Shown here: positions 1,777-63,130 of the stretch, piece by piece
How the letters are laid out: each line of letters opens with the position of its first letter
Position numbering within the stretch: position 1 is the first letter of the stretch
DNA from: Leucoraja ocellata
Lineage: Eukaryota
Reading direction: 5' to 3'
Assembly (NCBI GenBank): GCA_036785375.1
Contig: JAWMAR010000087.1
Coordinates: 3,720,001 to 3,784,000 of the forward strand
Length of the DNA: 64,000 nt
Notes under the pieces: generated by a model
Database searches by the model: none
The model's input: the letters and a program-made list of their open reading frames with translations, nothing else
What the model was told of the DNA's origin: nothing
Program-made: the position numbers and the translations under genes

Positions 1777-4379
1777 GAAATTGTAAAAACTGTTTTATGG
1801 TGGATTGGTAGTCCCAAAATGTGTATTAAAAAAAAATTCCTAAAATGAGAGTGCAGTTAAAGTGTGCACAACAATGATTAAAAAAGTGAATTTTAAAAAT
1901 GTAACATTGTCTCAAAGAGTTTTAAATATGAATGAATGAATGACTACGTTTATTGGCCAAGTATGTACACGTACAATGAATTTGCCTTGGTGCTCCGCTC
2001 GCAAGTAACAACACGACTTACAGTAACAATTAAGAATGACACATAAACATTAATAATAAAACATTATAGTTTAAACATGTGAGTGAAATAAATTACCAGA
2101 GCAAAAGGAGACTACAGACATTTGGCTATTGAGTAGAGCTGCTACTCATGGAAAAAAGCTGTTTAATATCATGTCATTTAGCTGAGAAAGAGGGCCAGAA
2201 TTCTACGTTGAGCAATGGAGAAGGAGGGAGCACATTCTAATTTTACCACCACTTAGCTATGATCCCAGCTCGATTACCCCAGGGCTAAGCAACCAAGGCA
2301 TTTAGGCATCATCCTGAAAGCAATGTATATGTTTTTTTTCTTTGTTCTTTTGCATATCTTTCATTCATTTATTCTCTGTACCATTTCATATCTCTCGTTT
2401 CCCTCTTCCCTGACGAAGGAACTGGACCCGAAACTTTGTTTTCTCCAGAGATGCCGCCTGACTCATTGGGTTGCTCCAGCTTTTCGTGTCTATCTTCGAT
2501 GTAAATCAGCATCTGCAGTTCATTAATTGGGGACGATCAGCCATGATCACAATGAATGGCTCAAAGGGCCAAAAGGCCTCATCCTGCACCTATTTTCTAT
2601 GCCTACACAAGTATATCTGTAGGTTTGTGTGTGGTGGAATGGTGTATCCAGTAGATGTTCAGCAACCATTTAAAACACTAGAGTAGAACACCAACTATTT
2701 TCCCTTTGGGCAGAGTTGGGCTAACTGTCCAACTTGTGGGGCTAGAGTTGAGAACTGTTGAGAAATTCAGTTTTCAGCCTTCCGATCCAGGCACTATCCT
2801 TTTGAATTTACTGTACTCTAGCTTACACACATCCTTCCTACAGCCTGGAAACTAGAATTGCACACAATACCCCAAGTGCAGCCCAATCAACACTTTGTAC
2901 AACTGTAACCCAAAGTGCTAACTCTTGTATTTAATGCCTCAGCTCAAGTTAGTTTGTCTCCAGAGACTGCCTAGAACAACCAGCAATCGTTTTAGTGAGA
3001 ACAGCTAGAGTATTTTTAAATGACAACACCCCCAATGCTTTTTGTCCCGATAGACAGCGAGCAAATCATGTGTCTTTCAGAAGACCACAGAATATCTTTA
3101 CGTTTTCTGTGAATCATATGTCATTCAAATTATGCAAAGGAAAAATGTGAATGTTTTGAAATCCATAAAATCACACAAAGCAGTTTTAAAAGGTTTAATT
3201 TGTCAACCTGCAGCAAGTGTTCTACATGATCAGATACAGAACATACAGCTCCCATGTACAGCCCAATGATTTACTAGCTTATTGACTGTTTTATCTGTTT
3301 TTGACGTGCATATTATCGCACTGATTTATTGTCCACAGAAACTTCCTTTCAATACAAAATTCACATTATCCGCTTAAAGATAGCAACAGGTTAGTTATAC
3401 AAGGAACAGAAAGCGCTACCTGTTTAATAGCCCAGTTGCACACACTCTTATCCACCTCCACTAGATATGACAAAGGCTAGTGCATTATCAGAAATTTGGG
3501 AGTGAATTGTCAGTCATTTGTGCATGGTTGAGACGTACTTGATAAATAACGGGCAATGTTAAAAAATACCCAGTTTTGAAATGTCTTTTATTCGTGCATG
3601 AATATTATCCATATTATATGTCTGGGGACTGCCGAATTACACCACACCCCAAAATTGTACAAAGTGCAAAAGTCAATGAAGAGAGATGAAGAACTTGTTC
3701 TAAATACAACGATGGAGAAAGTGATTGAGGCAAGAAGCAGTTTGAATTCAGGGTAGGACAAGCAGAGGGGCAGGTTAGGAGGAAAATGGGAATGAAGCTT
3801 TGTCATTATCCAGGTCTGTGCTACAACCAGAACCTCTTACTTACCTCTCCAGCCGAGGCTGCTGTGTTCTGATCATGAGCCAGAACCGTGCCAACTTCAC
3901 AATAACTCTGCTGCTTACCCTGCATGGGACCTGGTTCATCAAGTCAGTCCCAACTTGAGTTCATTTCAATCTATCTCTCAGTGTCTCACTGGACAAACAA
4001 CACTGAGTCGAGTCATTGCCAGAGCTCTTTCCATTTAATTTTGCCCAAGTGCACTTGTCTGAGAATCTCTCCTCAAATTATTCATTTCCTTATTAGCATT
4101 ACTGGAAAGCTCTTTAGAGTTCAAAATCACATCACAGTTTCACAATTGCAAGAGTGCATTTATAGAGGAAAAATTAAAAAAGTCACATTTGCTTTTCACA
4201 ACCAAGTATTGTTCATACATACATGTTTTTTTTTCTACATACTCGGACTGTATAATGTGTACCAACCAATCAAAAAAACAATTGCAAAACACATACTTAA
4301 TCAACTAACTTTGTTACATTGTCAACAAGCTGCAAAGATCAGCTAGATTACATTCCCCGGCACGTGTAATTTAAGGCTT

Positions 4380-4415
4380 GAGAGAGGGGGAGAGAGAGAG
4401 ATAGAGAGAAAGAGA
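4380..4415. repeat. (GA)n microsatellite in the presumed ALDH6A1 3' UTR
   Basis: Interrupted gagagag run. Confidence 0.8.
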
Positions 4416-4739
4416 GCGAGTAGAAAACTGAGCAAGCAATAGCTCAAATTGAAATGGGCACAAAATTAGGCCACTTGTTTAATATTTTGATGTATCTATA
4501 AACAGATGCATTGCCTGATTTTTGCAGCCGATCAAAAATACAGATGATTTTTAGTAATTACCAAAGTGATCAATATTTCCCCTCTCCTTTCAAATTCTGC
4601 GTACGTGCTTCTTCAAGTCATACAGGGTTAAGCTGCTCTTACCCTCCCACTCCCATCCAATTTCTCCACACGTTCGATCCATAAAGTTAGGACTGAGAAG
4701 TGTGTTGATCATGCAGCCTGCCACTTCAGCAATGTCAAC

Positions 4740-4844
4740 CTAGCGCCCGATTGTGGGCATGACAACGGCTGGGCTGGATAAAGTAGAGTCTTCTTCCTTC
4801 CACTGTGAGGTGACGGTTTTGACCTGAGTGTAGAACTGAATGCC
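4740..4844 (-). CDS. ALDH6A1: ALDH6A1 exon 12 (last coding exon)
   Basis: Acceptor ...tcgtag, then GIQFYTQVKTVTSQWKEEDSTLSSPAVVMPTIGR*; 105 nt; TAG at 4740-4742. Confidence 0.96.
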   Translation of the reverse strand, partial: GIQFYTQVKTVTSQWKEEDSTLSSPAVVMPTIGR

Positions 4845-4889
4845 CTACGATAAAGTCGAAAAACAAATCCGTTAAAGGCAGTACGTGTC

Positions 4890-5330
4890 AATCAATCAAT
4901 CAATCAATCATTATTGTCATCTTGCAAAGCAACAGTTGTACAGTGCAAAATGAGAAGACGTTTCCCAGGGGATACCGGAGCATTGCACATGAAACTTAAA
5001 ACATTTCACACATAATAACAGTAAAAACAATCCAGTCCCTGATGAAACAGTATAAATAGTTAAAAGCAGGTAAAACAGCAACATTAAAATACAGTAAGAA
5101 CAATCATTAAAATGTTCAGGGCAGCCGATTTGAGTGGCCAGTGCCAGTTATTAAAATGTCAGTGCAAAGCCGCAGAATCAGGTGACTGTGAGTACAGAGT
5201 GACTGTTTAGCAGCCTCACAGCCTGTGGCAGGAAGCCGTTTAACAGTCTGGTAGTCCGGGCTTTGATGCTACGGTATCTCTTGCCTGATGGCAGGAGATC
5301 CAGGTGTGTGTGGAGGGGGTGCAGTTTGGC
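4890..5330 (-). mobile_element. Rex1/Babar-like LINE 3' fragment
   Basis: Minus strand reads DLLPSGKRYRSIKARTTRLLNGFLPQAVRLLN and ends in gacaataatga(ttga)n. Confidence 0.7.
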
Positions 5331-5837
5331 CCTCGGTCAACATTGAGAACAGTGTTATTTCAGGTATTGTTGAGCTGTTGATGGATGGATAAGCCTGGAC
5401 ACCATCTTTCCCTTGAATGCTTTTTGACCAGGCTATTTAATGTTTCAGTTTTACTCTGGGGGGAAATTCCACCATTCAATACTAATCTGCTGGGAGAAAG
5501 CTCAAAACCAAAGACAAGAATTTCGAAAATGTTATAAAAATAAAACAGAACGATTACAATGAAGTATCGTACTACTTACAGAGATCCATTGGCCTTCAAT
5601 TGACATTGGCAAACATGCACAGGGATGGATATGTTGAGGGGGCAATGGCAGGAAATGGGAATGGGGAAACTGAAGTCAGGAGGTCGTAGAATTAAACCAT
5701 CAGGAACACATTCAGAATAGGCAATCTTTCTCCTGCCAATTTTTCACCACCAACATAGACACGGATGCATGTGCAAGCCAAATCCTGATCCTCATTAAAT
5801 GTAGACTTTTGTTTTTAAACGTGATATTAACTTCTAT

Positions 5838-6760
5838 ATAACCATATAACAATTACAGCACGGAAACAGGCCACCTCGACCCTTCTAGTCCGTGCCGAAC
5901 ACGTATTCTCCCCTAGTCCCATATACCTGCGCTCAGACCATAACCCTCCATTCCTTTCTCGTCCATATAACTATCCAATTTATTTTTAAATGATAAAAAC
6001 GAACCTGCCTCCACCACCTTCACTGGAAGCTCATTCCACACAGCCACCATTCTCTGAGTAAAGAAGTTCCCCCTCATGTTACCCCTAAACTTCTGTCCCT
6101 TAATTCTCGTCATGTCCCCTTGTTTGCATCTTCCCTCCTCTCAGTGGGAAAAGCTTATCCACGTCAACTCTGTCTATCCCTCTCATCATTTTAAAGACCT
6201 CTATCAAGTCCCCCCCTTAACCTTCTGCGCTCCAAAGAATAAAGCCCTAACTTGTTCAACCTTTCTCTGTAACTTAGTTGCTGAAACCCAGGCAACATTC
6301 TAGTAAATCTCCTCTGTACTCTCTCTATTTTGTTGACATCCTTCCTATAATTAGGCGACCAAAATTGTACCCCATACTCCAGAATTGGCCTCACCAATGC
6401 CTTGTACAATTTTAACATTACATCCCAACTTCTATACTCAATGCTCTGATTTATAAAGGCCAGCACACCAAAAGCTTTCTTTACCACCCTATCTACATGA
6501 GATTCCACTTTCAGGGAACTGTGCACAGTTATTCCCAGATCCCTCTGTTCACCTGCATTCTTCAATTCCCTACCATTTACCATGTACGTCCTATTTTGAT
6601 TTGTCCTGCCAAGATGTAGCACCTCACACTTATCAGCATTAAACTCCATCTGCCATCTTTCAGCCCACTCTTCCAACTGGCATAAATCTCTCTGTAGACT
6701 TTGAAAATCTACTTCATTATCCACAACCCTTCCTATTCTTAGTATCATCTGCATACTTAC
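5838..6760 (-). mobile_element. CR1 LINE 3' fragment (RT C-terminus)
   Basis: ORF 6191-6775 (LQRDL...WQMEFNADKCEVLHLG...RDLG...LYKALVRPILEY...QFWSP) plus ORF 5913-6113 (FFTQRMVAVWNELP). Confidence 0.9.
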
Positions 6761-7171
6761 TGCATTCTCTTCCATTAGGATGGCTCATACTTCTATCTGC
6801 AGGCCAGGTGCCACCAAAATTCCACGACTTTTTTGTCAAGATCACACAAAATTGCAAGAGTAGTGAATGCAGCCCAGCCTATTGGAGCCCAAAGACATGT
6901 TGGCCAAATCAACTGGAGGGTTATCTATGTATTTCTTTGAACACAAGAAGCTGGAGTAGGCCACCTGACCCTTCAAGCCTGCCCTGCAATTCAATATGAT
7001 CGTGGCCAATCTGCCCCAAGCTGAAAACTCCTCTTCTGTGCCAGTTCCCCAGAAATTCCTATTCCACAATCTCACAAATATGTACCTACCTCCCCATTAT
7101 ATACTTCCACGACCTAGCCTTCACAATCCCTTGAGAGTACTGCCAATTGTGCTTGGGCCCAGCATACTCAC

Positions 7172-7270
7172 CTGTTTGCCGTAAAAATTGGTATCGCCTC
7201 TGAACGAGCCTCTTGATCCAGTAAATGAGAACATGGGTAACGGAACTGGGATAGGCACATTGACACCAAT
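7172..7270 (-). CDS. ALDH6A1: ALDH6A1 exon 11
   Basis: [33 protein letters not shown]; 99 nt; AG/GT boundaries. Confidence 0.97.
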
Positions 7271-7374
7271 CTGAAAAGAAAGTCACTAATTATTTAAAAA
7301 AGGCAGAGCACACAATTTCACCATAATGGACATTGTCATGTTCTAAGCAGTTATCGACTGGTTGTGGATTATAG

Positions 7375-8490
7375 AGCCAGAGTGATAAGGTGTGGAAACA
7401 GGCCCTTCGCCCCAAATTACCGAATAGCGAAAGGCTTGGATAGAGTGGTTGTGGAGAGGATGTTTCCACTAGTGGAAGAGTCTAGGACTAGTCATAGCCT
7501 CCGAATTAAAGGATGTTCAGGATGTTCTTTTAGGAAGGAGATGAGGAGGAATTTTTTTAGTTAGAGGGTGTTGAATCTGTGGAATTATTTGCCACAGAAG
7601 GCTGTGGAGGCCGTCAGTGGATATATTTAAGGCGTGGATAGATTCTTGATTAGTACGGGTGTCAGGGGTTATGGGGAGAAGGCAGGAGAATGGGGTTAAG
7701 AGGGAGAGATAGATCAGCCATGATTGAATGGCAGAGTAGACTTTATGGGCCAAATGGCCTAATTCTGCTCCTGTCATTTATGACTTTATGGCCACACTGG
7801 CCAACATGACCCAGCTACACTAGTCCCACCTGCCCGCATTTGGCCCATATCCCTCCAAACTTATACTATCCATGTACCTGTCTAACTGTTTCTTAAATGT
7901 TGGGATAGTCCTTGCCCCCACTACCTCCTCTGGCAGCTTGCTCCATACATCCCCACCCTTGGTGAAAAGTTACCCCTCAAATTCCTATTACATTTTTTTC
8001 CCCTTCACCTGATACCTGTGAAGCCCTGACAACACCCTCGTAAAGCTTTTCTGTACCCTTTCAAGCTTGACAACATCTTTCCTATAACATGGTGCCCAGA
8101 ACTGAACACAATACTCTAAATGCGGCTTCACCAACGTTTCATACAACTACAACACGACTTCCCAACTTCTATACTCAATACACTGACTGATGAAGGCCAA
8201 TGTATCAAAAGCCTTTTTGACTACCCTATCTACCTGCAACTCCAATTTCAAGGAACCATGCACCTGCACTCCTACAACACTCCCCAGGGCCCTATTAGTC
8301 ACTGTGTAGGTCCTGCCAATGTTAGACGTCCCAAAATGCAACACCTCACATTTCTCTGTATTAAATTCCAAAAACCATTCCTCAGTCAACCTGGCCAATC
8401 GATCAAGATCCTGCTGCAATTTTTCACAGCCATCTTCACTATCTGCAAACCCACCTGCACACTTGTATCATCTGCAAACTTGCTAATCTT
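7375..8490. mobile_element. Nested CR1 fragments (a + copy inserted in a - copy)
   Basis: ORF 8147-8419 (-) WFLEFNTEKCEVLHFG; ORF 7364-7564 (+) GLDRV..ERMFPLV..SRT..SLRIKG. Confidence 0.8.
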
Positions 8491-8629
8491 GCCGTGTATG
8501 TTCTTGTTTGCAATTCCAAGAAAGCAATTCTCACTTGACAAGTTGCTTTAAAGATCGGTAAATTCAAAGTAGAGGGAAAGCAGTTTAGCAATAAATTTGC
8601 AAGTTGGAACAGATAGAAGAAAAAAAGGT

Positions 8630-9350
8630 ACGAGAAAGAACTGCAGATGTTGGAAAAACTGAAGGTAGATAAAAATGCTGGAGAAACTCAGCATTATATC
8701 ATTATAGTATTTCCAGGTGAGACAGAGGTTCATGTGCACCTTCTCTTACCTTATCTACTCCATCTGGGGCTCCCAATGTGGCCTCCTTTACATCAGTGTG
8801 ACCAAGGGTAGAATAGGCAAGCGAACACTTGTGCTCGTTCTAACCATTTTAACTCCACTTCCCATTCTGACATTTCTGTCCTGGGCCTCCCTCATTGCCA
8901 GAGCGAGGCCACGAACAGCACCTTTTATTCTGCTCGGGTAGCTGACAACCCAATGAGGTGAACATTGAATTCTCCAATATTAGGTAACTAACCTACACAC
9001 ACTCTCTTCCCTGTGCCCCACCTGGATGTGCACCCATTTCTCCTTTCCCCATCCCACTGTTCCCTTCCACCCATATTCCTTCCTCTGGCTTTAAATTTAA
9101 TTCATGCCTCTTTTATCATTATCTCACACTTTATTTTTTCACCTCTGGTCTTTGACCACCTGCCTCACCTGTATCCATCCACCATTTGCCAGGCTTTGTC
9201 CCAGGTCTCTTCCAGCTTCCAGCCCCCTACTGCAATCAGTATCAAGGGTCTGGATCCGAAACGTCGCCTTATCCATGTTTTCCTGAGATACTGCCTGACC
9301 AGCTGAGTTACTCCAGCACTGTGTGTCTTTTTTTGTAAACTGGCTACTGC
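8630..9350 (+). mobile_element. Penelope-like element fragment (GIY-YIG region plus terminal repeat, with an inverted 5' piece)
   Basis: VRQRFMCTFSYLIYSIWGSQCGLLYISVTKGR resembles a degenerate GIY-YIG N-terminus. A degenerate hammerhead (...gggtctggatccgaaacgtc) lies at ~9245-9267, and an inverted terminal-repeat piece at 8636-8692. Confidence 0.7.
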
Positions 9351-9514
9351 GGCTCGTTGTGTCGACATAGCACTGATAAGGGTTACAACTTACCCAATAA
9401 GAATGCAGAAACATTAGACAGCTGACAAATAATCCTCCTTTTGCCTTCTACACAAATCAAGCAGGATTCTCAAACATTTTGACCAGTTTAAACAAAACCC
9501 CGAATCCAGCACAG

Positions 9515-10176
9515 AAATAGAAATAGAAATAGAAATTAGGTGCAGGAGTAGGCCATTCGGCCCTTCGAGCCTGCACCGCCATTCAATATGATCATGGCTG
9601 ATCATCCAACTCAGTATCCCGTACCTGCCTTCTCTCCATACCCCCGATCCCCTTAGCCACAAGGGCCACATCTAACTCCCTCTTAAATATAGCCAATGAA
9701 CTGGCCTCAACTACCCTCTGTGGCAGAGAGTTCCAGAGATTCACCACTCTCTGCGTGAAAAAAGTTCTTCTCATCTCGGTTTTAAAGGATTTCCCCTTTA
9801 TCCTTAAGCTGTGACCCCTTGTCCTGGACTTCCCTAACATCGGGAACAATCTTCCTGCATCTAGCCTGTCCAACCCCTTAAGAATTTTGTAAGTTTCTAT
9901 AAGATCCCCTCTCAATCTTCTAAATTCTAGAGAGTATAAACCAAGTCTATCCAGTCTTTCTTCATAAGACAGTCCTGACATCCCAGGAATCAGTCTGGTG
10001 AACCGTCTCTGCACTCCCTCTAAGGCAATAATGTCCTTCCTCAGATTTGGAGACCAAAACTGTACGCAATACTCCAGGTGTGGTCTCACCAAGACCCTGT
10101 ACAACTGCAGTAGAACCTCTCTGCTCCTATACTCAAATCCTTTTGCAATGAAAGCCAACATACCATTCGCTTTCAT
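9515..10176 (-). mobile_element. Young CR1 LINE 3' fragment
   Basis: Uninterrupted 194-aa ORF (LYRVLVRPHLEYCVQFWSP...RRLRGDLIETYKI...) with a (TTTCTA)n tail; almost identical to 15230-15590. Confidence 0.92.
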
Positions 10177-10929
10177 TACTGCTTTACTTTACAACTGCTT
10201 TACTTAAATGAGCTATTTGGCCTGTGCTATCTACTAACTACCCACTTAATCTAATATTTTATCTCCTCCCCCCCTCCACCCCCAATATCTTCACTGCCCA
10301 GGAGATTCTACCACTCACTATACACCAAGAACAATTTAAAGAGGCCAATTAACTAATGAATCTGCAGATATTTAGAAAACCGGAGCACTGGAGGAAAGCC
10401 ACACAGAAACCCACAGGGAGAATGTTGTACAGAACTCAGCAGGGCAGGCAGCATCTCTGGAGAACATGGATTGGCGACGTTTTAGGTCGGGAACCTTCTT
10501 GATTGGCCAAGGAGGAAAACAGCAGAGAATAATAATTTGAAAGCTTTACACCCTTTTGCATTTTCCTTCACTGCTCAACATAACAGATAGAGTTAGCCAG
10601 TTTGCTTTGCATACCATTTACATCTGCACCAAAACTCTGCTAGAACGCATCAACTCATACATACAGTACCGGATGTTAGAATTGAACCTGGATCTCTGGT
10701 GCTGCAAAGCAACTCCTCTCCGAGCTGCACTGCTGTGTCATTGGCTTCTTATTGGTCATACTGAATCATGGCTTCACTTTCCTCTCAAATGTAATAGCTG
10801 CAGTAGGATAGCACGGCTTGGCCAACAACCAGAATGAAGTTAATACATCAAACTCCATCAATACCACAATCAGTTCTAATTAATAGCTGCACAGAGAAGT
10901 ACATGACAACCCTCATTCTGCAAACGCAC

Positions 10930-11109
10930 CTGGCCGACATCGACTTGGTGGGTGTATTTACGAGCGGTGGCACCGTTGGTGGTGAAGATGGCAGTGCCAT
11001 TTCCGTATGGGTTCTGGTTGATGATATCAACTGCTTCGTCTAGCGTGCTTGCCTCCAGCACAACCAGCACGGGCCCAAAGATTTCCTCAGTGTAACACTT
11101 CATGTGAGG
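10930..11109 (-). CDS. ALDH6A1: ALDH6A1 exon 10
   Basis: [19 protein letters not shown]...[28 protein letters not shown]; contains the ALDH EEIFGP motif; 180 nt. Confidence 0.97.
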
Positions 11110-11881
11110 CTGTGGAGGAAAACCAGCCGTGAATAACAACTTTTACACCCATTTGCATTTCTCTTCAGCGCTCATCACAACAGATAGAGTTAGCTAGTTT
11201 GGTCCGACGTTGGTTTGCAAGCCATTGACACCTGCGCCAAGAAACTCCGCAAGCAAGAATTTCAGTGTTTCATTGTCGGTACTTTCTTGACTCAAGGTAT
11301 TATCACAAAGTTTTAAAAACATTTGGACAGTACATGGATAGGATATGTTTAGAAGGACATGGTGTAAACATAGGCAGGTGGGACTAATGTAGATGGGGCA
11401 TGTTGGTCGGGTTGGGCAAGTTGGGCCGAAAGGCCTGTTTTCCAGTGTATGACTATTTTCCTGACATACGGGTCAAGAAAGGTTTGCCAGCAAAGTTGTG
11501 GGCAGTCAGAAATTGAGTCAAACCTGGTAACAGTATGTTTAAACTAGCCATGTGGTACTTGGATAAAACAATGAGATGTGATTTATTGAACCCCCTCCCA
11601 TCCAAATTTAAACGTGCAATCCAAATTCAGCAACCTACATGTAACCTGTCAGGGGAATAAGGGAGAAGGCAGGAGAATGGGGCTAGGAGGGAGAGATAGG
11701 CAAACCATGATTGAATAGGGGAGTGGACTTGATGGACCAAATGGCCTAATTCTGCTCCAATCACTTATGACCTAACCTTGATCATTTCATAACATTTGTT
11801 ATGTGTGTCAGGGGTATTGGGAGAAGGCAGGAGAATGGGGTTAGGAGGGAGAGATAAATCAGCCATGATTGAACGGCGGAG

Positions 11882-12575
11882 CTCCACCTGGTGGCGCCAG
11901 CAATGGCTGCCCCGCCAACAGTCCGTCTGACCCTTCCTTATTTGTTGTTTTTTTAAACTATGTGTTAAATGTACATTTTAGTGTTCTTCAGCATGTTTTA
12001 TGTGGGGGATGGGGGTTTGGGGGGGAAATTTTAATCTCTTACTTTGAGGGAGATGCGATTTTCCCCCTGTGTCGTATCTCCGTCTGCACTGCGGCCTAAC
12101 ATAGAGGAGATGGCGGCTTTTGCTGGAGTCCGAATTCGGGAGCTCCAATCGCGGGAGTCTGCGGACTTGCCGTCGTAGAGCTTGCGATCCCTGTCGGGGA
12201 TCGACCTCGGAGCTGCAACCGCAGCAGTCTGCGGACTTAACATCGTGGAGCTCGCGGTCCCTGGCTAAAGACAGACTTCTGGAGCTCCAAACCGCAGGAG
12301 CTTCGACTGCCCCGACGTGGGGGCTTCGATCGCCGGCTGCGGGAGCTGCAATCGCCCCGACTGCGGATGGTTCGATTGCCCGGACCGCGCCAGAATAAAG
12401 AGGAAGAAGATTGTACTTTATGGCCTTCCATCAAGTGAGGAATCCGCTGTGGTGGATGTTTATGTTAACTTTTATGTAGTTATGCGCCTTGTTGCTTATT
12501 TTAAGTATGGCTGTATGGTTATTCAAGTTTCACTGTACCCCAACTGGTACATGTGACAATAAACTGACCTTGGAA
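11882..12575 (+). mobile_element. CpG-rich non-coding retro-element, longer copy, inserted in a CR1 tail
   Basis: Interrupts the CR1 3' UTR (ttgaacggcgga | gtaaacttgatggg) and ends ...gtacatgtgacaataaa. Confidence 0.7.
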
Positions 12576-12845
12576 TCATTGAGTAAACTTGATGGGCCAA
12601 ATGGCCTAATTCTGTTTCTCTCACTTATGACCCAACCTTGATCATTTCAAGGGCTCCATTTACTTTAGTGCAAATCGCTAGGTAATGCAGTTGTAAGTTA
12701 GAGGCTAAGATTAATTCACTACGTGACCTTCTTGAGCTACTGGTGCAACCTTTGTTGGAAGCGAGTGGCCATTATAAGTACCAAAGAATGATGGAAATAT
12801 AAAGCAAGATGTCCCATGTTTAAGCAAGAAGTGACCTTTACTCAC

Positions 12846-13027
12846 CTTTACTCCAGCAAGGATGGTAGGTCCTACAAAGTTGCCTCTTTCATATCCTTTC
12901 ACTTTGACCTTGCGCCCGTCCAGCAGCAGTTTGGCGCCCTCGGTCACCCCACTCTGGACTAGATCGCACACCCTGGCCTTCGCCTGAGGTGAGATGAGGG
13001 GGCCAAGGTCAGAGCCCGGCTGGTCAC
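12846..13027 (-). CDS. ALDH6A1: ALDH6A1 exon 9
   Basis: (G)DQPGSDLGPLISPQAKARV...GNFVGPTILAGVK; 182 nt; phases fit neighbouring exons. Confidence 0.97.
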
Positions 13028-13777
13028 CTGGGGTCAGGAAGGAAACAAAAACTATGGTAAATACAAGCAACTAAGTCAACTCCTGCGCCCTTCAAAATGT
13101 TGGGGCAATGAAGATCATCGGTAGGGGCTGAAAAAAAGGGAGGGAGAGAGGATGGGTGGGGGGTGAGAAGGCAGGAACTGCAGTTGCTGGCTGAAGGGCC
13201 TGTTCTTATGCTGTACTGTTCTATGTTAAAACAAAGAGGAAGAGAGTCGAACACAACAGGGAGACACTTCTTATTTTGCCGACAGTTTGTGTGGTTGGAG
13301 TCAATGCACTGCCTGCACACCTGGAGGAGTTAGACAATAGACAATAGGTGCAGGAGTAGGCCATTCGGCCCTTCGAGCCAGCACTGCCATTCAATGTGAT
13401 CATGGCTGATCATCCCCAATCAGTACCCTGTTCCTGTCTTCTCCCCAGTTAAGTTTCACTGTGGCCTGCAAGGACCACCTAATATACGCTGAGAAATAAA
13501 AAAAATGCAAGGCTATGGAGAAGGCAGCCGATGGTTAGAAATTGTCAGTTGTTCTGGTAGAGAATCAACATCAACTTGATGGGCAGAGTCTGCGCTGCAT
13601 TCATTACTGTGGATTGGTTCAAAAGCATTGACTTGTTACTTTATTTCTCAAGGACATCAAGGAATTGGCAATAAATGTGAACCACTGCATGCCCAAATTA
13701 GATTGTGGAAAGGAATAAAGGACACTGTATATTCTACACAATCCATTTCAAGGTTACTATACAATTACTTTGGCTGC

Positions 13778-14075
13778 TCGGTGGCACAGTGGTAGAGTTG
13801 CTGCCTTACAGCACCAGAGACCCGGCGTCAGTGCAGGTGCTCGTCTGTACAGAGTTTGTCCGCTCTCCGTGTGACCTGCTTGGGTTTTCTTTGAGATCTT
13901 CGGTTTCCTCCCACACGCCAAAGACATACAGGTTTGTTGGTTAATTGGCAAGGTATAAATGTAAAATTATCCCTAGTGTGTGTAGGATAGTGTTAGTGTG
14001 CAGGGACCGCTGGTCAGTGCAGACACGGTGGGCTGAAGGGTCTGTTTTCACACTGTATCTCCAAAACTAAACTAA
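13778..14075 (+). mobile_element. tRNA-derived V-SINE-like element
   Basis: A-box-like ggtggcacagtggtagag head, central cctcccacacgccaaagac...ggttaattgg domain, CR1-like tail ending in (aacta)n. Confidence 0.8.
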
Positions 14076-14194
14076 ACTACAGAAGACAAGGAAGTAGCTG
14101 CGGGAAGAGATCATGCATTTCAGAGTTCGAGTCCATGATCCTAGAGGCACTTTACAGCACCCACTGCAGTGAACCCACTGAAGTTTAAACTCAC

Positions 14195-14384
14195 CTGCAT
14201 TGACTCTCAATTTCTTTGCCTTTTCCACCAGTTCGGGCAGCCAGCTTTTAGCTTCGCCGACCAGGACAGCAGTAGACAGAGCCATGCAACGCTGCCCAGC
14301 TGCACCAAACGCCGCGCCCACAAGCTGATTCAAAGTGTTCTCCTTGTTGGCATCAGGCATCACCACTCCGTGGTTCTTCGCACC
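14195..14384 (-). CDS. ALDH6A1: ALDH6A1 exon 8 (catalytic Cys)
   Basis: GAKNHGVVMPDANKENTLNQLVGAAFGAAGQRCMALSTAVLVG...LRVNA; 190 nt; the AGQRCMA motif carries the catalytic cysteine. Confidence 0.97.
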
Positions 14385-15229
14385 CTGAAAGGAATGGATT
14401 GAGAAAGCAAGAGCTAAAGTGAAGGTACCTTCTAGTAGTCTATGGATGGACACACAATACAGACATGAACAACAGAGCGCTTAATGTCAGACAGCAAGAT
14501 TCAAATCATACCAGTCATATTGAACCTGTGATGCACAATTTTAACAAATTAATTCCATCGAATGGGGACATTTATGAAACTCAACTCACTTGAGAAGTGT
14601 GCAATTCAGGCTAAATAGGCTGGGATGGTGCCGCCTGCACAAACTTTGCACGTTCTCCCTGTTGCCGCATGGGTTTCCTCCAGATGCTCCACTTTCAATA
14701 GACAACAGACAATAGGTGCAGGAGTAGGCCATTCAGTCCTTCAAGCCAGCACCGCCTCCTCCCAAAGACGTGCGGGTATGTAGGTTAATTGGCCTGAGTG
14801 TGTATGCAAACGTGGGACAACATACAACTAGCGTGAGGTCGGCCTGGGCCGAAGGGCCTGTTTCCGTGCAGTATCTCCAAACCACGTTTGAATATAGTTT
14901 GAACTTGACAACCAGCAAATGCTTCAAATTAAACCGTGCACTCTTCAAACAAAATAAAACAAACTATCTGTGCTCTTTGCTTCCCAAACCAAGTCTCACA
15001 TCAAATAACTAAGGAGAACTCGTTATATTATCAAAGAAAGATACAAAATGCTGGAGTAACTCAGCAGGACAAGCTGCATTTCTGGATAGAAGGAATAGGT
15101 GAGGTTTCGGATCGAGACCCTTCTTTGGACATAGATCAAACAGATAAATAAAAGGTCACCATGTCGCAAGTTACACCAAATTGCTGGTCAACTATGCAAG
15201 CTGCAGAAAGCCAAACTTACAATCCTATC

Positions 15230-15590
15230 ATAGAAACATAGAAATTAGGTGCAGGAGTAGGCCATTCGGCCCTTCGAGCCTGCACCGCCATTCAATATGA
15301 TCATGGCTGATCATCCAACTCAGTATCCCGTACCTGCCTTCTCTCCATACCCCTTGATCCCCTTAGCCACAAGGGCCACATCTAACTCCCTCTTAAATAT
15401 AGCCAATGAACTGGCCTCAACTACCCTCTGTGGCAGAGAGTTCCAGAGATTCACCACTCTCTGTGTGAAAAAAGTTCTTCTCATCTCGGTTTTAAAGGAT
15501 TTCCCCCTTATCCTTAAGCTGTGACCCCTTGTCCTGGACTTCCCTAACATCGGGAACAATCTTCCTGCATCTAGCCTGTCCAACCCCTAT
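15230..15590 (-). mobile_element. Young CR1 3' end
   Basis: ORF 15320-15583 is nearly identical to the C-terminus of ORF 9592-10176. Confidence 0.9.
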
Positions 15591-15708
15591 CAAGGTTGTT
15601 TAGGTGGGCATGAGTGCTGGGGAGTTGAGAATCTGTTCTCTACGTAACCCATTTGGATAATAACCAGAAGGAAAACACTGAGCAGCAGGAAAATGAAAGA
15701 ATATTCAC

Positions 15709-15830
15709 CATGTTGGACTGTACCCTCTTGCCGTTTTTGGAGCCTCTGGTGTAGATGTATTCTCCAGCCTGATTGGAGCCCACAAAGCTGATGGCTTTGA
15801 TAACCGGGTGGTCACAAATGAAGTTCACCG
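15709..15830 (-). CDS. ALDH6A1: ALDH6A1 exon 7
   Basis: (A)[40 protein letters not shown]; 122 nt. Confidence 0.97.
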
Positions 15831-16438
15831 CTGAAGAAATGAGAACAAAATTAACTACAGTAAACACTCGCAATAATGAGCCGCTATACAATAGATTTTG
15901 GTTATAGCAGAGTTAGGCTCCCGTTACATATGCTGAATGTGTACAATCTTACATCGAGTTTGCGTGGTGAATTGCAAGTGAACGTGTTATGCCTGTCGCC
16001 AAACTTATCGGAATTAGATCAGTAAAGACTCAATATGGCACTGAAGCTTGGTGACTCTACGCGTGTTGGTCAAGGAAGCGGATCTGCCCTCATTCATTAC
16101 AATTGCTTCACTCTTAAATCTTTATTTCAATCGTAGCATTTTGTTAACTTGGCTATTCCCGTATTTATTCCCTTTGTAAAGTTATTCCCTTTATCCTGTA
16201 TATGTATACTGTGGACGGCTTGACTATAATCATGTATAGTCTTTCTGTTGACAGGATAGCATACAACAAAAAGCTGTTCCTCAGTTCACGCGACAATAAT
16301 AAACTGAACTACAACTAAACATTAATCATCTGGAACTGCTAATATTCCAGTTACTTGATGCCATTACATCGCATTTGCAGAGCAATAAAACATTTAAGGA
16401 AGTCAAGGATTATTCACAGATATGCTGAAGGTCCTTAC

Positions 16439-16741
16439 CGTCGTGCTGACCATGGATGATATTAAGGGTTCCATCTGGGGCTCCTGCATCCTGCAATAAC
16501 TTGGCCAACATCATGGCAGCTCCAGGCACACGCTCAGAGGGCTTCAGCAGATAGGTGTTTCCACAGACCATGGCCATAGGGAACATCCAGAGAGGGATCA
16601 TGGCTGGAAAGTTAAAGGGAGTGATACCAGCACACACCCCCAACGGCAAGCGGTAATTGAAGACGTCCATGTCCTTGGCGATGCCAGGCAAAGTCTCACC
16701 TAGCAGGAGAGACGTGATACTGCAAGTGTGCTCAACTACCT
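16439..16741 (-). CDS. ALDH6A1: ALDH6A1 exon 6
   Basis: (Q)VVEHTCSITSLLLGETLPGIAKDMD...PLGVCAGITPFNFPAMIPLWMFP...KPSERVP...IIHGQHD; 303 nt. Confidence 0.97.
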
Positions 16742-16833
16742 CTGTGGGAAGGAAAACAAAGATTAAAAGTCTGGTCAGATGGACAAATACCTTCTCCCTA
16801 ATGCAGCTTTAAACATAACAAGAGATGAATTGG

Positions 16834-18304: not shown

Positions 18305-18383
18305 GTAAGCCTCTGAAAACATCCCCTTCAGCATCAGCCAAGGTTTTTCCTTGTTCTGCTGTAATGAGCTTTGCTATTTCAGT
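18305..18383 (-). CDS. ALDH6A1: ALDH6A1 exon 5
   Basis: TEIAKLITAEQGKTLADAEGDVFRGL; 79 nt; cag/gtgag boundaries. Confidence 0.96.
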
Positions 18384-19952: not shown

Positions 19953-20062
19953 ACAAATAGGTCTGTTCGTTACTGACAGGATTCTTCATCTCATCCCCGT
20001 CCACCTCAATTAAGGTTACCTTGAAATTCAGCTCAGTAGCACGTCCGTCCCACTTGACTCAC

Positions 20063-53298: not shown

Positions 53299-53321
53299 TT
53301 TTTTTCCTATATGTATACAAT

Positions 53322-54022
53322 ATAGACACAAAATGCTGGTGTAACTCAGCGGGACAGGCAGCTTCTCTGGAGAGAAGGAATGGATGACGTTTCGGGTCGA
53401 GACCAATCTTCAGACTGATGTTGGGAGTGGGCGGGACAGAGAAAGAATGTAGTCGGAGACAGTAAGACTGGCGGGAGAATTGGGAAGGGGGAGGGGATGG
53501 AGAGAGGGAAAGCAAAGGCTATTTGAAGTTAGAGAAGTCAATGTTCATACCACTGGGGTGTACGTTACCCAAGCAAAATATGAGGTGCCGTTCCTTCCAA
53601 TTTCCTCTAATCTCCCGGTTGCTCAGCACTTTAACTCCACCTCCCATTCCCAATCAGACCTTTTGGTCCTGGGCCTCCTCCATTGTCAGAGTGAGGCCCA
53701 GCACAAATTGGAGGAACAGCATCTCATATTTTGCTTGGGTAGCTTACACCCCAGCGGTATGAACATTGACTTCCCTAACGTCAAATACCCCTTGGTTTCC
53801 CTCTCTCTCCATCCCCTCCCCCTTCACAGTTCTCCCACTAGTCTTAGTATCTCCGACTACATTCTATCTCTGTCCCACCTAATCCCCTGACATCAGTCGA
53901 AAGAAGGGTCTCGACCTGAAACCTCACCCATTCCTTCTCTACAGTGATGCTGCCTGTCCTGCTCAGTTACTCCTCCATTTTGTGTCTACCTTTGATTTAA
54001 ACCAGCATCTGCAGTTCTTTCC
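53322..54022. mobile_element. Penelope-like element with inverted 5' part
   Basis: Minus copy 53322-~53605, then plus copy ~53607-54022 encoding LPVAQHFNSTSHSQSDL..LGLLHCQSEAQHKLEEQHLIFCLGSLHPSGMNIDF. Hammerhead-like motifs occur at both ends (53386-53413 has an intact core, on -). Confidence 0.85.
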
Positions 54023-54072
54023 TACGTATATATATTATTATCCAGTATTATCAGAATTACCAGTCCATTACC

Positions 54073-57086: not shown

Positions 57087-58428
57087 AAAGTCTACTCTCA
57101 ATATATGACTCGTAGGATTATTCCATCCAGCCTGTCTTGGTGAATGATGAACTGGTTAGTCCACAATCTGCTATTACTTTTTAGTGTCAACTGGATCCCC
57201 AAGCTGGCTTCTGATGGGGATGTCTCTGCTTTGTGCAAGGCCTTCAAGTTGGGTCACACCTCGTTAATAGGCTATCAAAAAACATCAAGTTTCTATCAGT
57301 GTTTCTGATATTCACAAATATTCAAAACGCAAAAAAATACGTTCAGTCGTACAAATATTAACGGTATTAGATTAAAATGTTTTTTTTAATTTAACACATT
57401 AAACAGTAGGAAGCAATTAAACATTTAAATATGTTTCGAATTATTTTTTGTTCAATTCATTTTTTTAAATAAAAGTAAATGACTAGAAATGTACTCGTCT
57501 TTTTTGGAACCATTCCTCTTCATTGACGTGAATGGAAAGGTTAAATCGGCACCATCTTTAATCAAGCACAGGTTTGATCAGCAGATTCCCCAGGGAAAGG
57601 CCGGAGGTTGGTGCTCTGCCATTGAATATTGTGAGAAACAAAATGTCCAAGTGCAGGTGGAATGATCTCGACGACATCCCCTCAGAAGATTTGGGACTTC
57701 AGTGTTTGCTGGAGTGGCTCTCAAGTGCTTCAGATTGTCAATGTGTGTTCACCCTTCTTAAGTGTTCCACTTCTGGTGTGGTAATGGTGAGCTTTAAAGC
57801 TGCCAATTTCATTGCAAAATGGAGATTTAGAGATGGACACTAAAGGTTGGCCTTGTCAGCAACATCAACAGTACTGATTGTGGATGATCAGCCATGATCA
57901 CATTGCTGGACTGAAGGGCCGAATGGCCAACTCCAGCACCTATTGTTTATAGTCTATAACATCCTGTGCCCAACACTTTCCAATCAGCCCCATCATATCT
58001 GTAAATCAGTGCATAATATTTGTTGTAGATATTTATACTTTCATTAACAATTGTATAATTTCTGAGTCATTTCCTGTAATTGGGTGTAATTGTGCAGGTG
58101 TCATGAAAATCCATCATGGTTGAATATTCTTACATATTCGATGGATTAAATGTGATTGGCCAGAAGATCATCAAGAGCCAATGGTAGCGAAGAAAAGATT
58201 GCCGTTGCTTAAAATAATTGGCGTGAACTTCACTCTAGTAATTTGTGTGGGGAAAAAAGAGTCAACTTTTGAGTCTATAAACTCAGTTGGGGTCTTTAAC
58301 TTTATATTAACATTGTGGCATTGTAACAGCAGCACAGCTACAATGAACTGAGTGAGCTGCTTCACTGCTGACTTGAATCATTCTCAGGTTGACAATATTT
58401 TATAGCAGTCATCTAAACTTGATTGGAT

Positions 58429-58658
58429 AGACACAAAATGCTGGAGTAACTTAGCCGGTCAAGCAGCATCTCTGGAGAAGAGGAATAGGTGACTTTTCAG
58501 GTCGGAATCCTCCTTCAGTGTCTGAAGAAGGGTTGCGATCCGAAACGTCACCTATTCCTTTTCTCCAGAGATGCTGCCTGACCCGCTGAATGACTGCAGA
58601 ATTTTGTGTCTATCTCCGGTATAAACCAGCATCTCTGGTTCCTTCCTACACTGCTTGA
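58429..58658. mobile_element. Short fold-back PLE terminal-repeat insertion
   Basis: Inverted pair 58426-58614 centred at ~58520; possible TSD ttgattggat at 58419-58428 and 58659-58668. Confidence 0.75.
58522..58549 (+). ncRNA. Minimal type I hammerhead ribozyme motif
   Basis: CUGAAGA-a-GGGUU(GC)GAUCC-GAAA-CGUC; stem II maintained through G-U pairs. Confidence 0.6.
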
Positions 58659-60372: not shown

Positions 60373-60424
60373 TGCTTCTATGACTGTACTTAAATTTACA
60401 TTCCCCAGCTGCCGTGGAAGGATT

Positions 60425-60870
60425 TGAACACCTCCGCTCAGTCCGCCTTAACCTACCCGATCTCCCAGTTGCTCAGCACTTTAACTCCCCCTCCCATTCC
60501 AATCTGACCTTTCTGTTGTGGGCCTCCTCCATTGTCAGAGTGAGGTCCAGTGCAAATTGGAGGAACAGCACTTCATATTTTGCTTGGGTAGCTTGCACCA
60601 CAACGGTATGAGCATGGACTTCTCTAACTTCAATTAGCCCTTGCTTTCTCTGTCTCTCCCCATCCCCTCCCCCTTCCCAATTCTCCCACCAGTCTTACTG
60701 TCTCCGACTACATTCTATCTGTCCCACCCGCTCCCCTGACATCAGTGTGAAGAAGGGTCTCGACCCGAAACGTCACCCATTCCTTTCCAGAGATGCTGCC
60801 TGGCCCACTGAGTTACTGCAGCATTTTGCGTCTACCTTCGATTTAAACCCGCATTTCAAATTATTTCCCA
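60425..60870 (+). mobile_element. Penelope-like element 3' fragment
   Basis: EHLRSVRLNLPDLPVAQHFNSPSHS (GIY-YIG region), followed by a terminal repeat with a mutated hammerhead core (GTGAAGA...GAAACGTC). Confidence 0.8.
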
Positions 60871-62834
60871 CATATCCTACCTATTTTTAATCCTTAATGG
60901 TAGAGATGAGAAGAAGCATTTGAAGCCAAATGATAATGAATCTTTGGGATGCGCTACCACAGTGCAGTGGAGGTTCACATAGGTTAACTTTTACCTATTA
61001 TAGCAATTGAGATATGGGTTTAATGCAGGAAAGCGGGACTAAGGAAAGATCAGTGAAGGAGTTCTTGAATGTTGGACTAGTTTTTATTTTCTTATGAAAA
61101 CTTTTGTAAATTTAGCCATTTACAATTTTTGTTAAAATTGACTTTGTGTACTTTCTATCCCTTCCAGTTATGTGCTGCTTATCATTACCTAAACTACACG
61201 TTTTCTTTGCACCCTTTTCTTTTTTCAGATTCAGATGAGTCTGTTGTCATTGACACCAGTGTGCAATGAAATTCCTTGTTTGCATAAAAGTATATCAGTA
61301 TACATGGTAATGATGGAAACAACAAATACAAAACTGCAGAATGATGCACAGATTGTAGTGCAATCAGATGCAGTACAAATATAATACTTAAGTACAATAA
61401 CGGAATAACTGAATGAGATGAAGTTAAGAATAAGAATGCGGTGCCACACTTGTGTGGAGGTGGTGATTGGTTCCTTTCCTTCATTTGAACTTCCCTATCT
61501 CGCTTTAAAACCCCAGTCTATAGTTATAGTTACAAAATCCATTAGGAAATGATCCTTGCTGTTTTAGGTGGAGCCCATCTGAAAGAATAGATTTCTCTTT
61601 TCCCCAATCTGCTGCCGCTGTCCCATGAATTGAAACCCATCCTCTTACCATGCTCTTTAAGCCAAGCATTTAACTCACACCTGCTTTTATCTCTGTCCTT
61701 TGTTCCACCCATCTGCCAATCAACCCCCCCCCCCCCCCTCCACCCCCACCGCACCCGCATCACCTGTGTCCACCTATTACCTCCCACGTTCTGTCGTGCC
61801 TCTCCTCTCCCTCAGCTTTCTTCCACTCGCCCCTCCCCACAATTAGGCTGAAGAAAGATCCTGACCCGAAAAGTCACCTATCCATAGATAGACACAAGAA
61901 GCTAGAGTAACTCAGCGGGCCAGACAGCATGTCTGGAGAGAAGGAATAGGTGACGTCTCGGGTCAAGACCCTATCCATGTTCTCCAGAGATGCTACCTGA
62001 CCCGCCGAGTTACTCCAGCACATTGTGTCCTTTTGTGTAAACTTGCAGTTTCTTGTTTCTACATTTAAATTTCTCATTCATTCTAACCCATTACAGTTTG
62101 TCAAGGACGGACTGTCCCAAACTTGAATGGTTTCATGGAGAGGATTGTCAAACTATAACAATAAAATCAGACCTAGCCCCAGATCCAACCTGACCACGGT
62201 GAATGCCAACTCAACTCGAAACGAAGGATTAAAAAATATATACCTGATCCAATTCAAAAGTGAAACTATATCATTTAATCCGTGTGATACATTTTTTCTA
62301 ACATTTTTGATAAACTACCATATTTTAATGTCCTACATGGAAATTATTTCTCCAAATGATGCCATAATGCAATAATCTTACTTTGGTCCATTGAAATTGC
62401 TTATAGCTACTTTATTCAGCAACATGTTGGATTGAGCGTGTGAAGGGAATAGCACATCAGTCAATGTGTTACAATGTGATGGCAGCTCTCTCTGGCTTAA
62501 AGTGGTGACTTCCAATGTAATTTTACACCAGATAGGAAACCAAAATTTTGGGTTTACACAAATAATCAACATAGCAAATAATGGAATTTAGTCAAATTAC
62601 AATAACAACCAAAAATCACCCTCAAACCAAAAAAAGAAATGTTAAGAAATGTAGGTCATGCTTTGATTTATGAAGCTTTATTGCGTGAAGTATGTGTAGC
62701 AAAGACTGTCCGGGAACATTCATTACTGTCACATTATTGTTATTGCTGTTGTCATTTTAATTATTTAACACTTGCATTTGTTCCCAGTATTTTTTCTCAG
62801 GCATTAGAAGTGAACTGGTGGTAATGTATGAAAG

Positions 62835-63130
62835 AAAGACACAAAATGCTGGAGTAACTTAGCGGGACAGGCAGCATCTCTAGAGAGAAGGAATGGGTGA
62901 CTTTTGTCTCGAGACCCTTCTTCAGACTGAGGGTCGGGGAGAGGGAAACTAATGATATAGAAGGGTATAAAGAGCATGTGAGGTGAGAAAAGGACAGATC
63001 AAAGCAGACAATGATCAAGGAAATGTACAACGGTTCATTGTTGGCTGAGGGGAAGGTGACAACGAGGTATACAAACAGTAAAATTAATTAGGAGGACAGT
63101 GAATCTAGTAGGAGTACCTGGGTGGGAAGG
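62835..63130 (-). mobile_element. PLE terminal-repeat fragment
   Basis: Homologous to 27590-27960 (gacacaaaatgctggagtaac...cccttcttcagactga...gacagatcaaagcagac). Confidence 0.75.

Follow-up and report, generated by a model that had tools for sequence, protein, structure and literature searches.

Minimal type I hammerhead ribozymes are located in the pseudo-LTRs of metazoan Penelope-like elements, including Xena, Poseidon and Neptune of fishes (Cervera and De la Pena 2014, PMC4209133), and no chondrichthyan is named in several parts of the text or in one supplementary table of that paper. The repeat described here, which recurs throughout a 64-kb stretch of Leucoraja ocellata DNA (the window), resembles the motifs in those parts of the 2014 paper in its CUGANGA core, the extra base between positions 9 and 10.1, the G10.1-C11.1 pair and the loop-less palindromic 15.2-16.2. 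It is also alike in its terminal-repeat location, its mass occurrence as single truncated copies and the presence of some opposite-strand pairs 100-700 bp apart. Helix II has 4 bp in the skate repeat versus 7-8 bp in Schistosoma, and helix I has 2 bp, as in the Drosophila virilis variant, versus 4-5 bp in Schistosoma.

The skate copies share heavy 5' truncation, partial tandems, an inverted 5'-truncated arm, an optional 30-40 bp tail on one arm and target-site duplication with canonical EN+ insertions of the Neptune clade, as these are described in parts of two earlier studies (Craig et al. 2021, PMC8557442; Arkhipova et al. 2013, PMC3846280). The CX2-5CXXC linker that precedes GIY-YIG in EN+ Penelope elements, according to the same parts, is matched in relatives, whereas a one-base-sharp 5' boundary at the hammerhead start is a skate feature that those parts do not describe. 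The Anolis carolinensis element PAc (Frangieh et al. 2024, PMC11167929) belongs to Poseidon rather than Neptune and its ORF starts at stem II, but it resembles the skate element in having two internal start sites that lie downstream of the hammerhead, some 30-40 nt from each other, in the use of uncut RNA as template and in showing no RNA-seq ends at the cut site. Animal non-LTR retrozymes are likewise short, non-coding, hammerhead-bearing and Penelope-related, but they are characterized in parts of the literature as arrays of tandem units, each with its own hammerhead, and as having a circular RNA (Cervera and De la Pena 2020, PMC7229834; Li et al. bioRxiv 2026.07.22.740005). Unlike retrozymes, the skate copies are dispersed and mostly single or inverted, and their motifs are minimal and mostly broken.

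Identity and anatomy of the repeat

A profile search (nhmmer) of the window returned 40 matches, and 44 after one iteration, with none in the reversed window, and a repeat of ~100-135 nt was present at every position where the preliminary description had placed one. The 44 matches correspond to about 34 insertions that occupy 6% of the window, a density of ~0.7 hits per kb. The strict pattern CTGAAGA-N8-28-GAAAC occurs 8 times in the window versus 0.31 expected. An Rfam scan of the window gave no matches at the gathering threshold, and a pattern scan of viral and metagenome contigs also gave none.

Very probably, the repeats derive from the 3' ends (pseudo-LTR, with or without a tail) of Neptune-type Penelope-like retrotransposons belonging to at least four subfamilies. 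Each subfamily bears a minimal hammerhead motif, conserved no more strongly than the remaining repeat sequence and probably inactive in the copies found here. Several copies had been reported as attached to GIY-YIG C-terminal coding sequence, and such a coding end is indeed reached in 7 of the 44 matches, with a spacer in 12. The peptide upstream of the repeat is 81% identical to Leucoraja erinacea proteins bearing a GIY-YIG domain; the Pfam GIY-YIG matches of relatives P0002 and P0004 are below the curated cut-off. Full-length relatives have an RT, a CxxxxCxxC linker and, at the C-terminus, a GIY-YIG domain, and a single ORF with RT and linker before the endonuclease was observed in relatives P0004, P0038, P0039 and P0054. 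No RT, linker or full-length Penelope element was found within the 64-kb window. Judged by eye, the skate subfamilies retain no common reading frame through the tail, whereas the PAc ORF starts at stem II. Splicing that would extend the endonuclease protein into the tail was considered and rejected, because the frame is interrupted in subfamily B and the motifs are absent from all proteins examined.

Identity between subfamilies is 0.64-0.90 in core and tail and 0.45-0.68 in the spacer, the latter close to the 0.47-0.60 obtained after shuffling. Spacer assignment of the copies at 9244 and 61845, whose scores of 39 and 43 are within the null range (maximum 45), rests on the adjacent endonuclease fragment or on pyrimidine content. 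Measured from C3, the 3' ends form two clusters, at +87..+101 (17 of 44) and +119..+129 (19 of 44), and the +129 end is also visible in public reads as low-agreement loose ends at 37791. Only 3 of the 34 intervals had target-site duplications above the null, with lengths of 16, 12 and 10 bp against a null maximum of 8. The Penelope-like inverted arm, partial tandem and optional tail are present at 37149-37794, 53319-54025, 27587-28091 and 58426-58652, and published Penelope anatomy is matched by the head-to-head arms, by the target-site duplications and by the existence of two 3' end points.

The youngest insertion (37139..37808, subfamily B) has two head-to-head arms on opposite strands, each consisting of an endonuclease C-terminus, a pyrimidine-rich spacer and a hammerhead. 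The arms are 98.5% identical, only the right arm has a tail, and the target-site duplication is a perfect 16 bp. Its plus-strand motif (37660..37691), sense in a LIN52 intron, is a complete minimal hammerhead with C3 at 37662, a UUCG loop, a GUU triplet and a predicted cut after 37689, and its whole length is predicted to pair with the inverted arm of the pre-mRNA; the minus-strand motif (37214..37245), antisense to LIN52, is also complete, with a G10.1-U11.1 wobble. An older inverted pair of subfamily A (53319..54025, both strands) has the GIY-YIG C-terminus in both arms, a left arm without and a right arm with tail, damage in both motifs and 86% identity between arms, and a plus-strand copy of the same subfamily (60426..60872) runs from endonuclease C-terminus through spacer and hammerhead, with C3 changed to G, into the tail. 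The subfamily C copy (8634..9358) has the longest endonuclease fragment (8708-8986), a spacer and a partly deleted core, and its 5' end bears a short piece of inverted tail. Subfamily D is represented by a partial tandem on the minus strand (27587..28091: tail piece, endonuclease end, spacer, motif and tail, plus an inverted short copy), in which core, stem II and stem III of the motif at C3 27715 (minus) are all complete, and by a minus-strand copy with spacer and damaged motif (62831..63131). Subfamily E copies, with a spacer of about 85 nt and damaged motifs, lie at 37985..38197 (plus), 2348-2524 (plus) and 18677-18892 (minus).

A minus-strand tandem of two motifs 43 nt apart (19831..19954), sense in an ALDH6A1 intron, is the only cis-dimer candidate in the window; its first motif is complete (C3 19952) and its second has a changed G5. 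Two short head-to-head copies joined at the core start (58426..58652, both strands) have a duplication of about 8-10 bp, and the plus-strand motif (C3 58522), sense in LIN52, is complete and predicted to pair with the other arm. A short minus-strand copy extending from position -2 through the tail (47435..47562) has a damaged motif and a 12-bp target-site duplication. The interval 25455..25680 holds a short copy starting at -2 and a separate inverted pair joined at +40, and a C-like copy (61680..62060) is interrupted at +34 by a second, inverted-pair insertion. Solitary short copies occur on the minus strand at 10433-10500, 15032-15130, 28972-28998, 39851-39947, 41968-42044, 43660-43749 and 48254-48323, and on the plus strand at 22808-22907, 22965, 27425-27543, 28273-28363, 28465-28526, 28720, 32550-32628, 36108-36210, 38989-39076, 41120-41235, 43480-43598 and 48572-48667.

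Conservation and decay of the hammerhead motif

Identification of the motif as a Penelope-derived minimal type I hammerhead was borne out. It matches the Penelope type known since 2014. The consensus contains core positions C3-A9, G12-A15.1, U16.1 and H17, the G10.1-C11.1 pair, the extra base after A9 and the palindromic loop-less stem III, which has been lost through CpG decay in many copies. Stem I is as short as had been suspected, with 2 bp in the copies, and none of the 6 copies that were folded extends it stably. A swarm of ribozyme motifs, as the preliminary description put it, overstates what is present: all core bases are kept in 9 of 44 copies, and stem II and the palindromic stem III are kept as well in 5.

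Nor is the core the best-kept part of the repeat. Among the 22 copies known to span the core, cells differing from the consensus amounted to 14 of 216 (6.5%) for non-CpG core bases versus 84 of 956 (8.8%) for the downstream repeat (p=0.34), and CpG sites were changed in 30 of 166 cells. A naive count of core against flank (14/248 vs 275/2092, p=3e-4) favored the core and was rejected because subfamily-diagnostic columns and alignment trimming were included. Stem II had been read as varying in sequence while staying paired, in some copies as 5 bp with a 2-nt loop. It consists instead of 4 bp and a 4-nt loop, with variation mainly in the tetraloop, and its four pairs comprise 91 unchanged cells, 11 one-sided changes (mostly G-C to G-U), 17 broken pairs and no compensatory change, so the covariation anticipated there was absent. 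Between subfamilies, only one-sided changes were seen. Most motif copies are likely inert, and the ribozyme would decay after insertion, fastest at CpG sites.

Host genes and intronic copies

Exons of both host genes named earlier were located in the window. ALDH6A1 (methylmalonate-semialdehyde dehydrogenase; minus strand, 4776..26785) has coding exons at 4776-21635 by homology and a likely first exon near 26785. LIN52 (plus strand, 27268..35011) has five exons, at 27268, 29292, 31944, 33793 and 34928, and since its last exon was not found in the window, 35012-64000 presumably belongs to the last LIN52 intron. Within the two genes, 25 copies are sense and 18 antisense (n=43, p=0.36), so sense copies are not depleted, and the complete motifs show no such depletion either (3 of 5 sense). 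The lack of strand bias suggests that the genes tolerate the repeats. Selection against the splice-acceptor-like spacer in sense orientation was also considered and rejected, with 6 sense and 5 antisense among the 11 long copies within genes.

The suggestion that sense copies cleave ALDH6A1 or LIN52 pre-mRNA, thereby regulating or burdening these genes, found no support and is highly improbable. Three complete motifs do lie sense in introns (19952, 37662 and 58522), and the tandem at the first of these could supply a dimer partner. That dimer fold, however, is 18.1 kcal/mol above the minimum, and the other two motifs are buried in inverted-repeat duplexes. The ribozyme fold was unfavored in 6 of 6 folded copies, with a stem II probability of at most 0.13 and a stem I probability of about 0. 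In three RNA runs (raw poly(A)/oligo-dT runs of related species), RNA ends were not piled at the predicted cut site. Parts of published work further describe minimal motifs as inactive as monomers and nearly so as dimers, or as needing the element's protein (PMC4209133, PMC11167929). RNA run X22 was strand skewed, but its strand labelling is ambiguous and the skew was set aside.

Origin of the short copies and their 5' boundary

Most copies had been thought to represent a non-autonomous family. The lack of upstream sequence in 32 of 44 matches and a 5' boundary common to many of them agree with that view, but a single clade of short copies was rejected (AU p=0.0082; 30 of 44 rows). The tail tree itself is weak, with 2 of 27 inner branches starred. 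The short copies are distributed among the tail subfamilies to which the endonuclease-linked copies also belong and, with the single clade rejected, they resemble by-products formed repeatedly by several autonomous subfamilies. A separate ~130 nt family (SINE-like or a retrozyme monomer) with its own masters, mobilized by the Penelope enzyme, is improbable. Common 5' and 3' ends do suggest a discrete unit, public reads hold tandem duplications of about 33 nt over the motif, and hammerhead-bearing non-autonomous Penelope derivatives are described in vertebrates, including one chondrichthyan, in part of a recent report (bioRxiv 2026.07.22.740005). Yet short copies carry the same A/D-, C- and E-type diagnostic bases as long copies, the window has no tRNA gene and no tandem array of full units, and the unit begins at stem I, whereas a retrozyme monomer would begin at the cut site. 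No array with complete hammerheads in at least two consecutive units occurs in the window, the only tandem (19954/19912) having a broken second core.

The 5' boundary is sharp to one base and often falls exactly at hammerhead position G2.2. Stops between -4 and +8 account for 19 of the 31 copies reaching +8, versus 8 of 39 in +9..+47 and 0 of 12 in -5..-80, in a test chosen after the data were seen; in 8 of 15 hand-picked short copies the match reaches exactly two bases upstream of C3. Public DNA contigs and two RNA runs contain frequent junctions to unrelated flank at 37659/37660. Public reads also show a depth step at 37652-37664, which was not counted as evidence because other subfamilies align only from there.

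One possible source of this boundary is splicing, in which the spacer would be an intron ending at CAG just before C3, as in D. virilis Penelope, and the short copies would derive from spliced RNA. The sequence upstream of the motif is 72-83% pyrimidine in all 12 long copies, most of which end in CAG-T, and part of the 2014 paper (PMC4209133) places the end of the D. virilis intron at the 5' edge of a 2-bp helix I. This explanation is nevertheless very unlikely, as none of 19 short copies has an upstream exon in common, loose ends at 37660 show 0.33 agreement, and no GT-AG skip ending at 37660 is among the 15 of 163 joints listed.

A stronger contender, if still on the unlikely side, keeps the Penelope origin and treats the pile-up as a truncation hot spot arising from structure rather than as an RNA end. 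The core purine run could pair with the downstream pyrimidine run (forming a hairpin that spans about -1 to +47), and position -1 is the center of an interrupted 9-bp palindrome, so that the enzyme would stall, fold back or be cut there. Palindromes are reported at Penelope inverted junctions in part of one study (PMC3846280). The consensus and single copies fold the competing hairpin, and the same place holds two inversions in the window (28013/28015 and 58518/58520) and, in public reads, opposite-strand joints (37661/37670 and 37667/37670). However, reverse transcriptase stalls when it enters a hairpin rather than when it leaves one, an inverted partner is absent from most short copies, and the boundary is precise to a single base.

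We tentatively favor a third reading, in which the short copies, hundreds of thousands of them, are the fossil record of a Penelope "strong-stop" product. The autonomous element RNA would carry the GIY-YIG stop codon followed by the pyrimidine-rich spacer, the hammerhead and a protein-binding region. By analogy with the anole element, and in keeping with the two observed 3' end clusters, the element enzyme would nick AT-rich DNA and begin to reverse-transcribe the RNA from an internal point, near +90 or +125 relative to C3. Because copies run through the cut site, the template is uncut; at most 2 of 44 copies (+29 and +31) start at that site (+28), so cleaved RNA is not the usual template. Copying usually ends early, often with an inverted second arm, as the copies themselves show. 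The element RNA would begin at G2.2, either because it is initiated there or because it is trimmed back to a protein-bound fold, and an enzyme starting on the motif at that 5' end would run off the template after 100-135 nt, the product being inserted alone or folded back. There is a little less than an even chance that such run-off explains the many copies beginning exactly at G2.2. Clean RNA starts at -2/-3 did not form a pile in the RNA runs. Any activity of the ribozyme would be confined to the master RNA, where it would need a dimer or the protein of the element, as the published work suggests.

As a ribozyme finding, the repeat is ordinary, since a 2014 publication had already described both the motif class and its occurrence in large numbers. 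Skates may nevertheless carry one of the densest loads of minimal hammerhead motifs: if the window is typical of the skate genome, which we take to be ~2 Gb, extrapolation gives about a million copies per genome. The G2.2 boundary and the two 3' end points offer a natural read-out of where the Penelope enzyme starts and stops, a step that is still poorly understood. If the strong-stop reading is correct, the outer base pair of the ribozyme would define the 5' end of the RNA, and the base-resolution positions of the Penelope start site and of both priming sites would be readable from skate genomes.

Copy number and anatomy of the element ends

A strict hammerhead pattern occurs eight times in the window, against 0.31 occurrences expected from shuffles. 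A profile built from seven window copies returned 40 matches, and 44 after one iteration, with none in the reversed window. These 44 matches include every place where the preliminary description had located the repeat, and they span 3891 bases, or 6.2% of the non-N sequence; once tandem and inverted partners are merged by hand, about 34 insertions are left. An Rfam scan of the window gave no match at the gathering threshold.

Twelve of the 44 matches extend upstream into a spacer of 72–83% pyrimidine, with 7 of the twelve continuing as far as a GIY-YIG endonuclease C-terminus. The upstream peptide shares 81% identity with one Leucoraja erinacea protein, 73% with another and 75% with a Rhinoraja protein, which places the window in a skate or a close relative. 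By spacer sequence the copies sort into subfamilies A to E, the last two perhaps related. From one subfamily to another the spacers are near shuffled identity, whereas core and tail are 64–90% alike, which argues that the master elements kept motif and tail. Numbering from C3 of the hammerhead as 0, so that U2.1 and G2.2 are –1 and –2 and the predicted cut comes after +27, the 3' ends form two clusters, at +87 to +101 (17/44) and +119 to +129 (19/44). The profile model itself stops at +129, and public reads give unrelated flank after 37791 (= +129). The two clusters represent an optional tail. The insertion at 37149–37794 has the textbook form, with an inverted arm lacking the tail, a direct arm carrying it (98.5% alike) and a 16-bp duplication. 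Across the 34 intervals, a target-site duplication rose above the null maximum in only three.

Several neighboring features deserve mention. The short Penelope copy at 47435–47566 has a 12-bp duplication that is easy to read because the copy is nested inside another short repeat, presumably a shark HE1-type SINE. At 55396–55543 (minus strand), the GIY-YIG C-terminus of the element occurs as a fragment that is followed by no spacer and no hammerhead. Two skate automatic gene models retrieved by homology (P0003 and P0004), one of them named neuromedin-U receptor 1, include the endonuclease fragment of this element as last exon; these exons are likely annotation artefacts, and possibly exonisation. 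A further abundant repeat class has reading frames resembling reverse transcriptase ends (9529–10188, 15238–15588 and 35335–35611; 6194–6784; 59932–60342). It gave a tblastn match to the reverse transcriptase part of P0002, a related protein, and nothing in a Pfam search of the reading frames; we take it to be CR1-like, and two copies are 98–100% alike and thus young. Adjoining an assembly gap, 51738–53265 contains direct repeats of 277 bp that are almost identical and lie 603 bp apart, together with short tandem units, possibly a satellite or an assembly duplication.

Decay of the hammerhead motif

The consensus motif comprises the CUGANGA core plus one additional A, a stem II of 4 bp closed by a tetraloop, then GAAA, stem III as a palindromic CG, GUC, and a stem I of two pairs, and corresponds to the minimal hammerhead type of PMC4209133. 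The core is kept in 9 of the 44 copies, in 5 together with stems II and III, and in 4 with both stem I pairs as well. The preliminary description supposed that the core would be better conserved than the flanking repeat, which does not hold for dispersed copies: among the 22 spanning the core, non-CpG core bases are changed in 14/216 cells and the tail in 84/956 (p = 0.34), with CpG sites changed in 30/166. A naive count had favored the core (p = 3e-4), an effect that was gone after handling of diagnostic columns and trimming. Nor do dispersed copies bear out covariation in stem II, whose cells comprise 91 unchanged, 11 one-sided, 0 compensatory and 17 broken. RNAalifold on 15 of the 44 copies recovered the stem without any two-sided change, and covariation in this set was not above shuffles. 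Between subfamilies, pairing is kept through differences in the loop, from U-A to U-G, from GUC to GUU and from A1.1 to G, which fits constraint on the masters only.

RNAalifold also returned, in the tail (+54 to +78 of the consensus), another conserved hairpin of 4 bp, which may belong to a protein-binding site. Public DNA contigs and RNA reads contain many tandem duplications of 32–34 nt that cover stem II together with the cut site (joints from 37699–37702 back to 37666–37670), and the window itself has a 43-nt tandem at 19912/19954; it is possible that such tandems are seeds of retrozyme-like arrays.

Host genes and cleavage of host RNA

ALDH6A1 occupies the minus strand, with exons between 4776 and 21635 and a probable first exon near 26785, and LIN52 the plus strand, with exons between 27268 and 35011. 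The names were assigned from MMSDH and LIN52 profile matches together with synteny. The last LIN52 exon was not found in the window by a search with short motifs, and 35012–64000 is thus taken to be the last intron. The two genes start head-to-head less than 500 bp apart in GC-rich DNA (26785–27268), and what is probably the first ALDH6A1 coding exon, including its donor site (26711–26785, minus strand), is a 36-bp tandem duplication.

Sense orientation is seen within the gene spans in 25 of 43 matches (p = 0.36), and among complete motifs in 3 of 5. Folding of six copies gave a stem II probability of at most 0.13 and a stem I probability of about 0, because the purine run of the core pairs with a downstream pyrimidine run. 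This pairing (–2 to +48 of the consensus) is available in all subfamilies folded and could be an off state. For the only tandem, the dimer fold is predicted to cost 18.1 kcal/mol, and for two sense copies, at 37662 and 58522, pairing with their own inverted arms is predicted.

Three public RNA runs and one contig set from related species were aligned to 37470–37830 at 85% likeness, recruiting 7794 reads out of 7.3 million, 15652 out of 12.9 million and 20494 out of 17.6 million, along with 78907 contigs out of 20.4 million. No pile of molecule starts or ends appeared anywhere in this interval, which is weak evidence given the threshold of one fifth of depth, the poly(A)-type libraries and the mostly decayed copies. 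The Poseidon element of Anolis carolinensis (PAc) is similar in this respect: according to PMC11167929, it yields no ends at the cut site, its ribozyme is protein-assisted and uncut RNA serves as template.

The sharp 5' boundary and the origin of short copies

Nineteen of the 31 copies that reach +8 stop between –4 and +8, compared with 8/39 in the 39 bases from +9 to +47 and 0/12 from –5 to –80, in a test selected after the data had been seen. DNA upstream of the short-copy boundary averages 46% pyrimidine versus 78% in the spacer, and is thus not spacer. In 15 short copies reaching the core start, picked by hand, the upstream match is exactly two bases in 8, three or more in 4 and one or none in 3, which fits copies that end at –2 with any further matches arising by chance. 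Junctions at the same place rank among the top loose ends in public data (best 24 of 1149 rows), leading to low-agreement flank in 219 contigs at 37659 and 299 at 37660, and in two RNA runs, X21 (403 reads at 37660) and X24 (1053 at 37659). All three subfamily E copies (2348; 18863–18892, minus strand; 37985) start at about the same T-rich place approximately 85 nt upstream of C3, which may point to another truncation-prone site or to a short family of its own.

What sets the boundary at the motif? The reading we favor, with a little under an even chance, is that the 5' ends would reflect run-off where the template RNA has its 5' end. PAc products get shorter as the template 5' end moves in (PMC11167929), and Penelope pseudo-LTRs contain a motif resembling an initiator as well as the start site (PMC2377424, PMC3846280). 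The sequence TCAGT, conserved just before C3, could fit an initiator, and equally a splice acceptor or half of a 9-bp palindrome. The palindrome would favor truncation driven by structure, which we regard as less likely than run-off; the resemblance to an acceptor would favor a boundary made by splicing, which is highly improbable.

The motif, its position in the element and its mass occurrence are already published. Our literature search listed no paper about Penelope hammerheads in skates or about copies whose 5' boundary falls at the motif, and subscription papers, Repbase/Dfam and 2026 preprint supplements may cover either; that 2026 preprint (bioRxiv 2026.07.22.740005) includes one chondrichthyan. 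That the short copies are a separate family is improbable, since a single clade was rejected (p-AU 0.0082) in a weak tree of 30/44 rows, with CpG columns taken out and rows not spanning +13 to +69 excluded. Moreover, short and long copies of each tail type have diagnostic bases in common. For both reasons, we read the short copies as by-products that several autonomous subfamilies gave rise to repeatedly.
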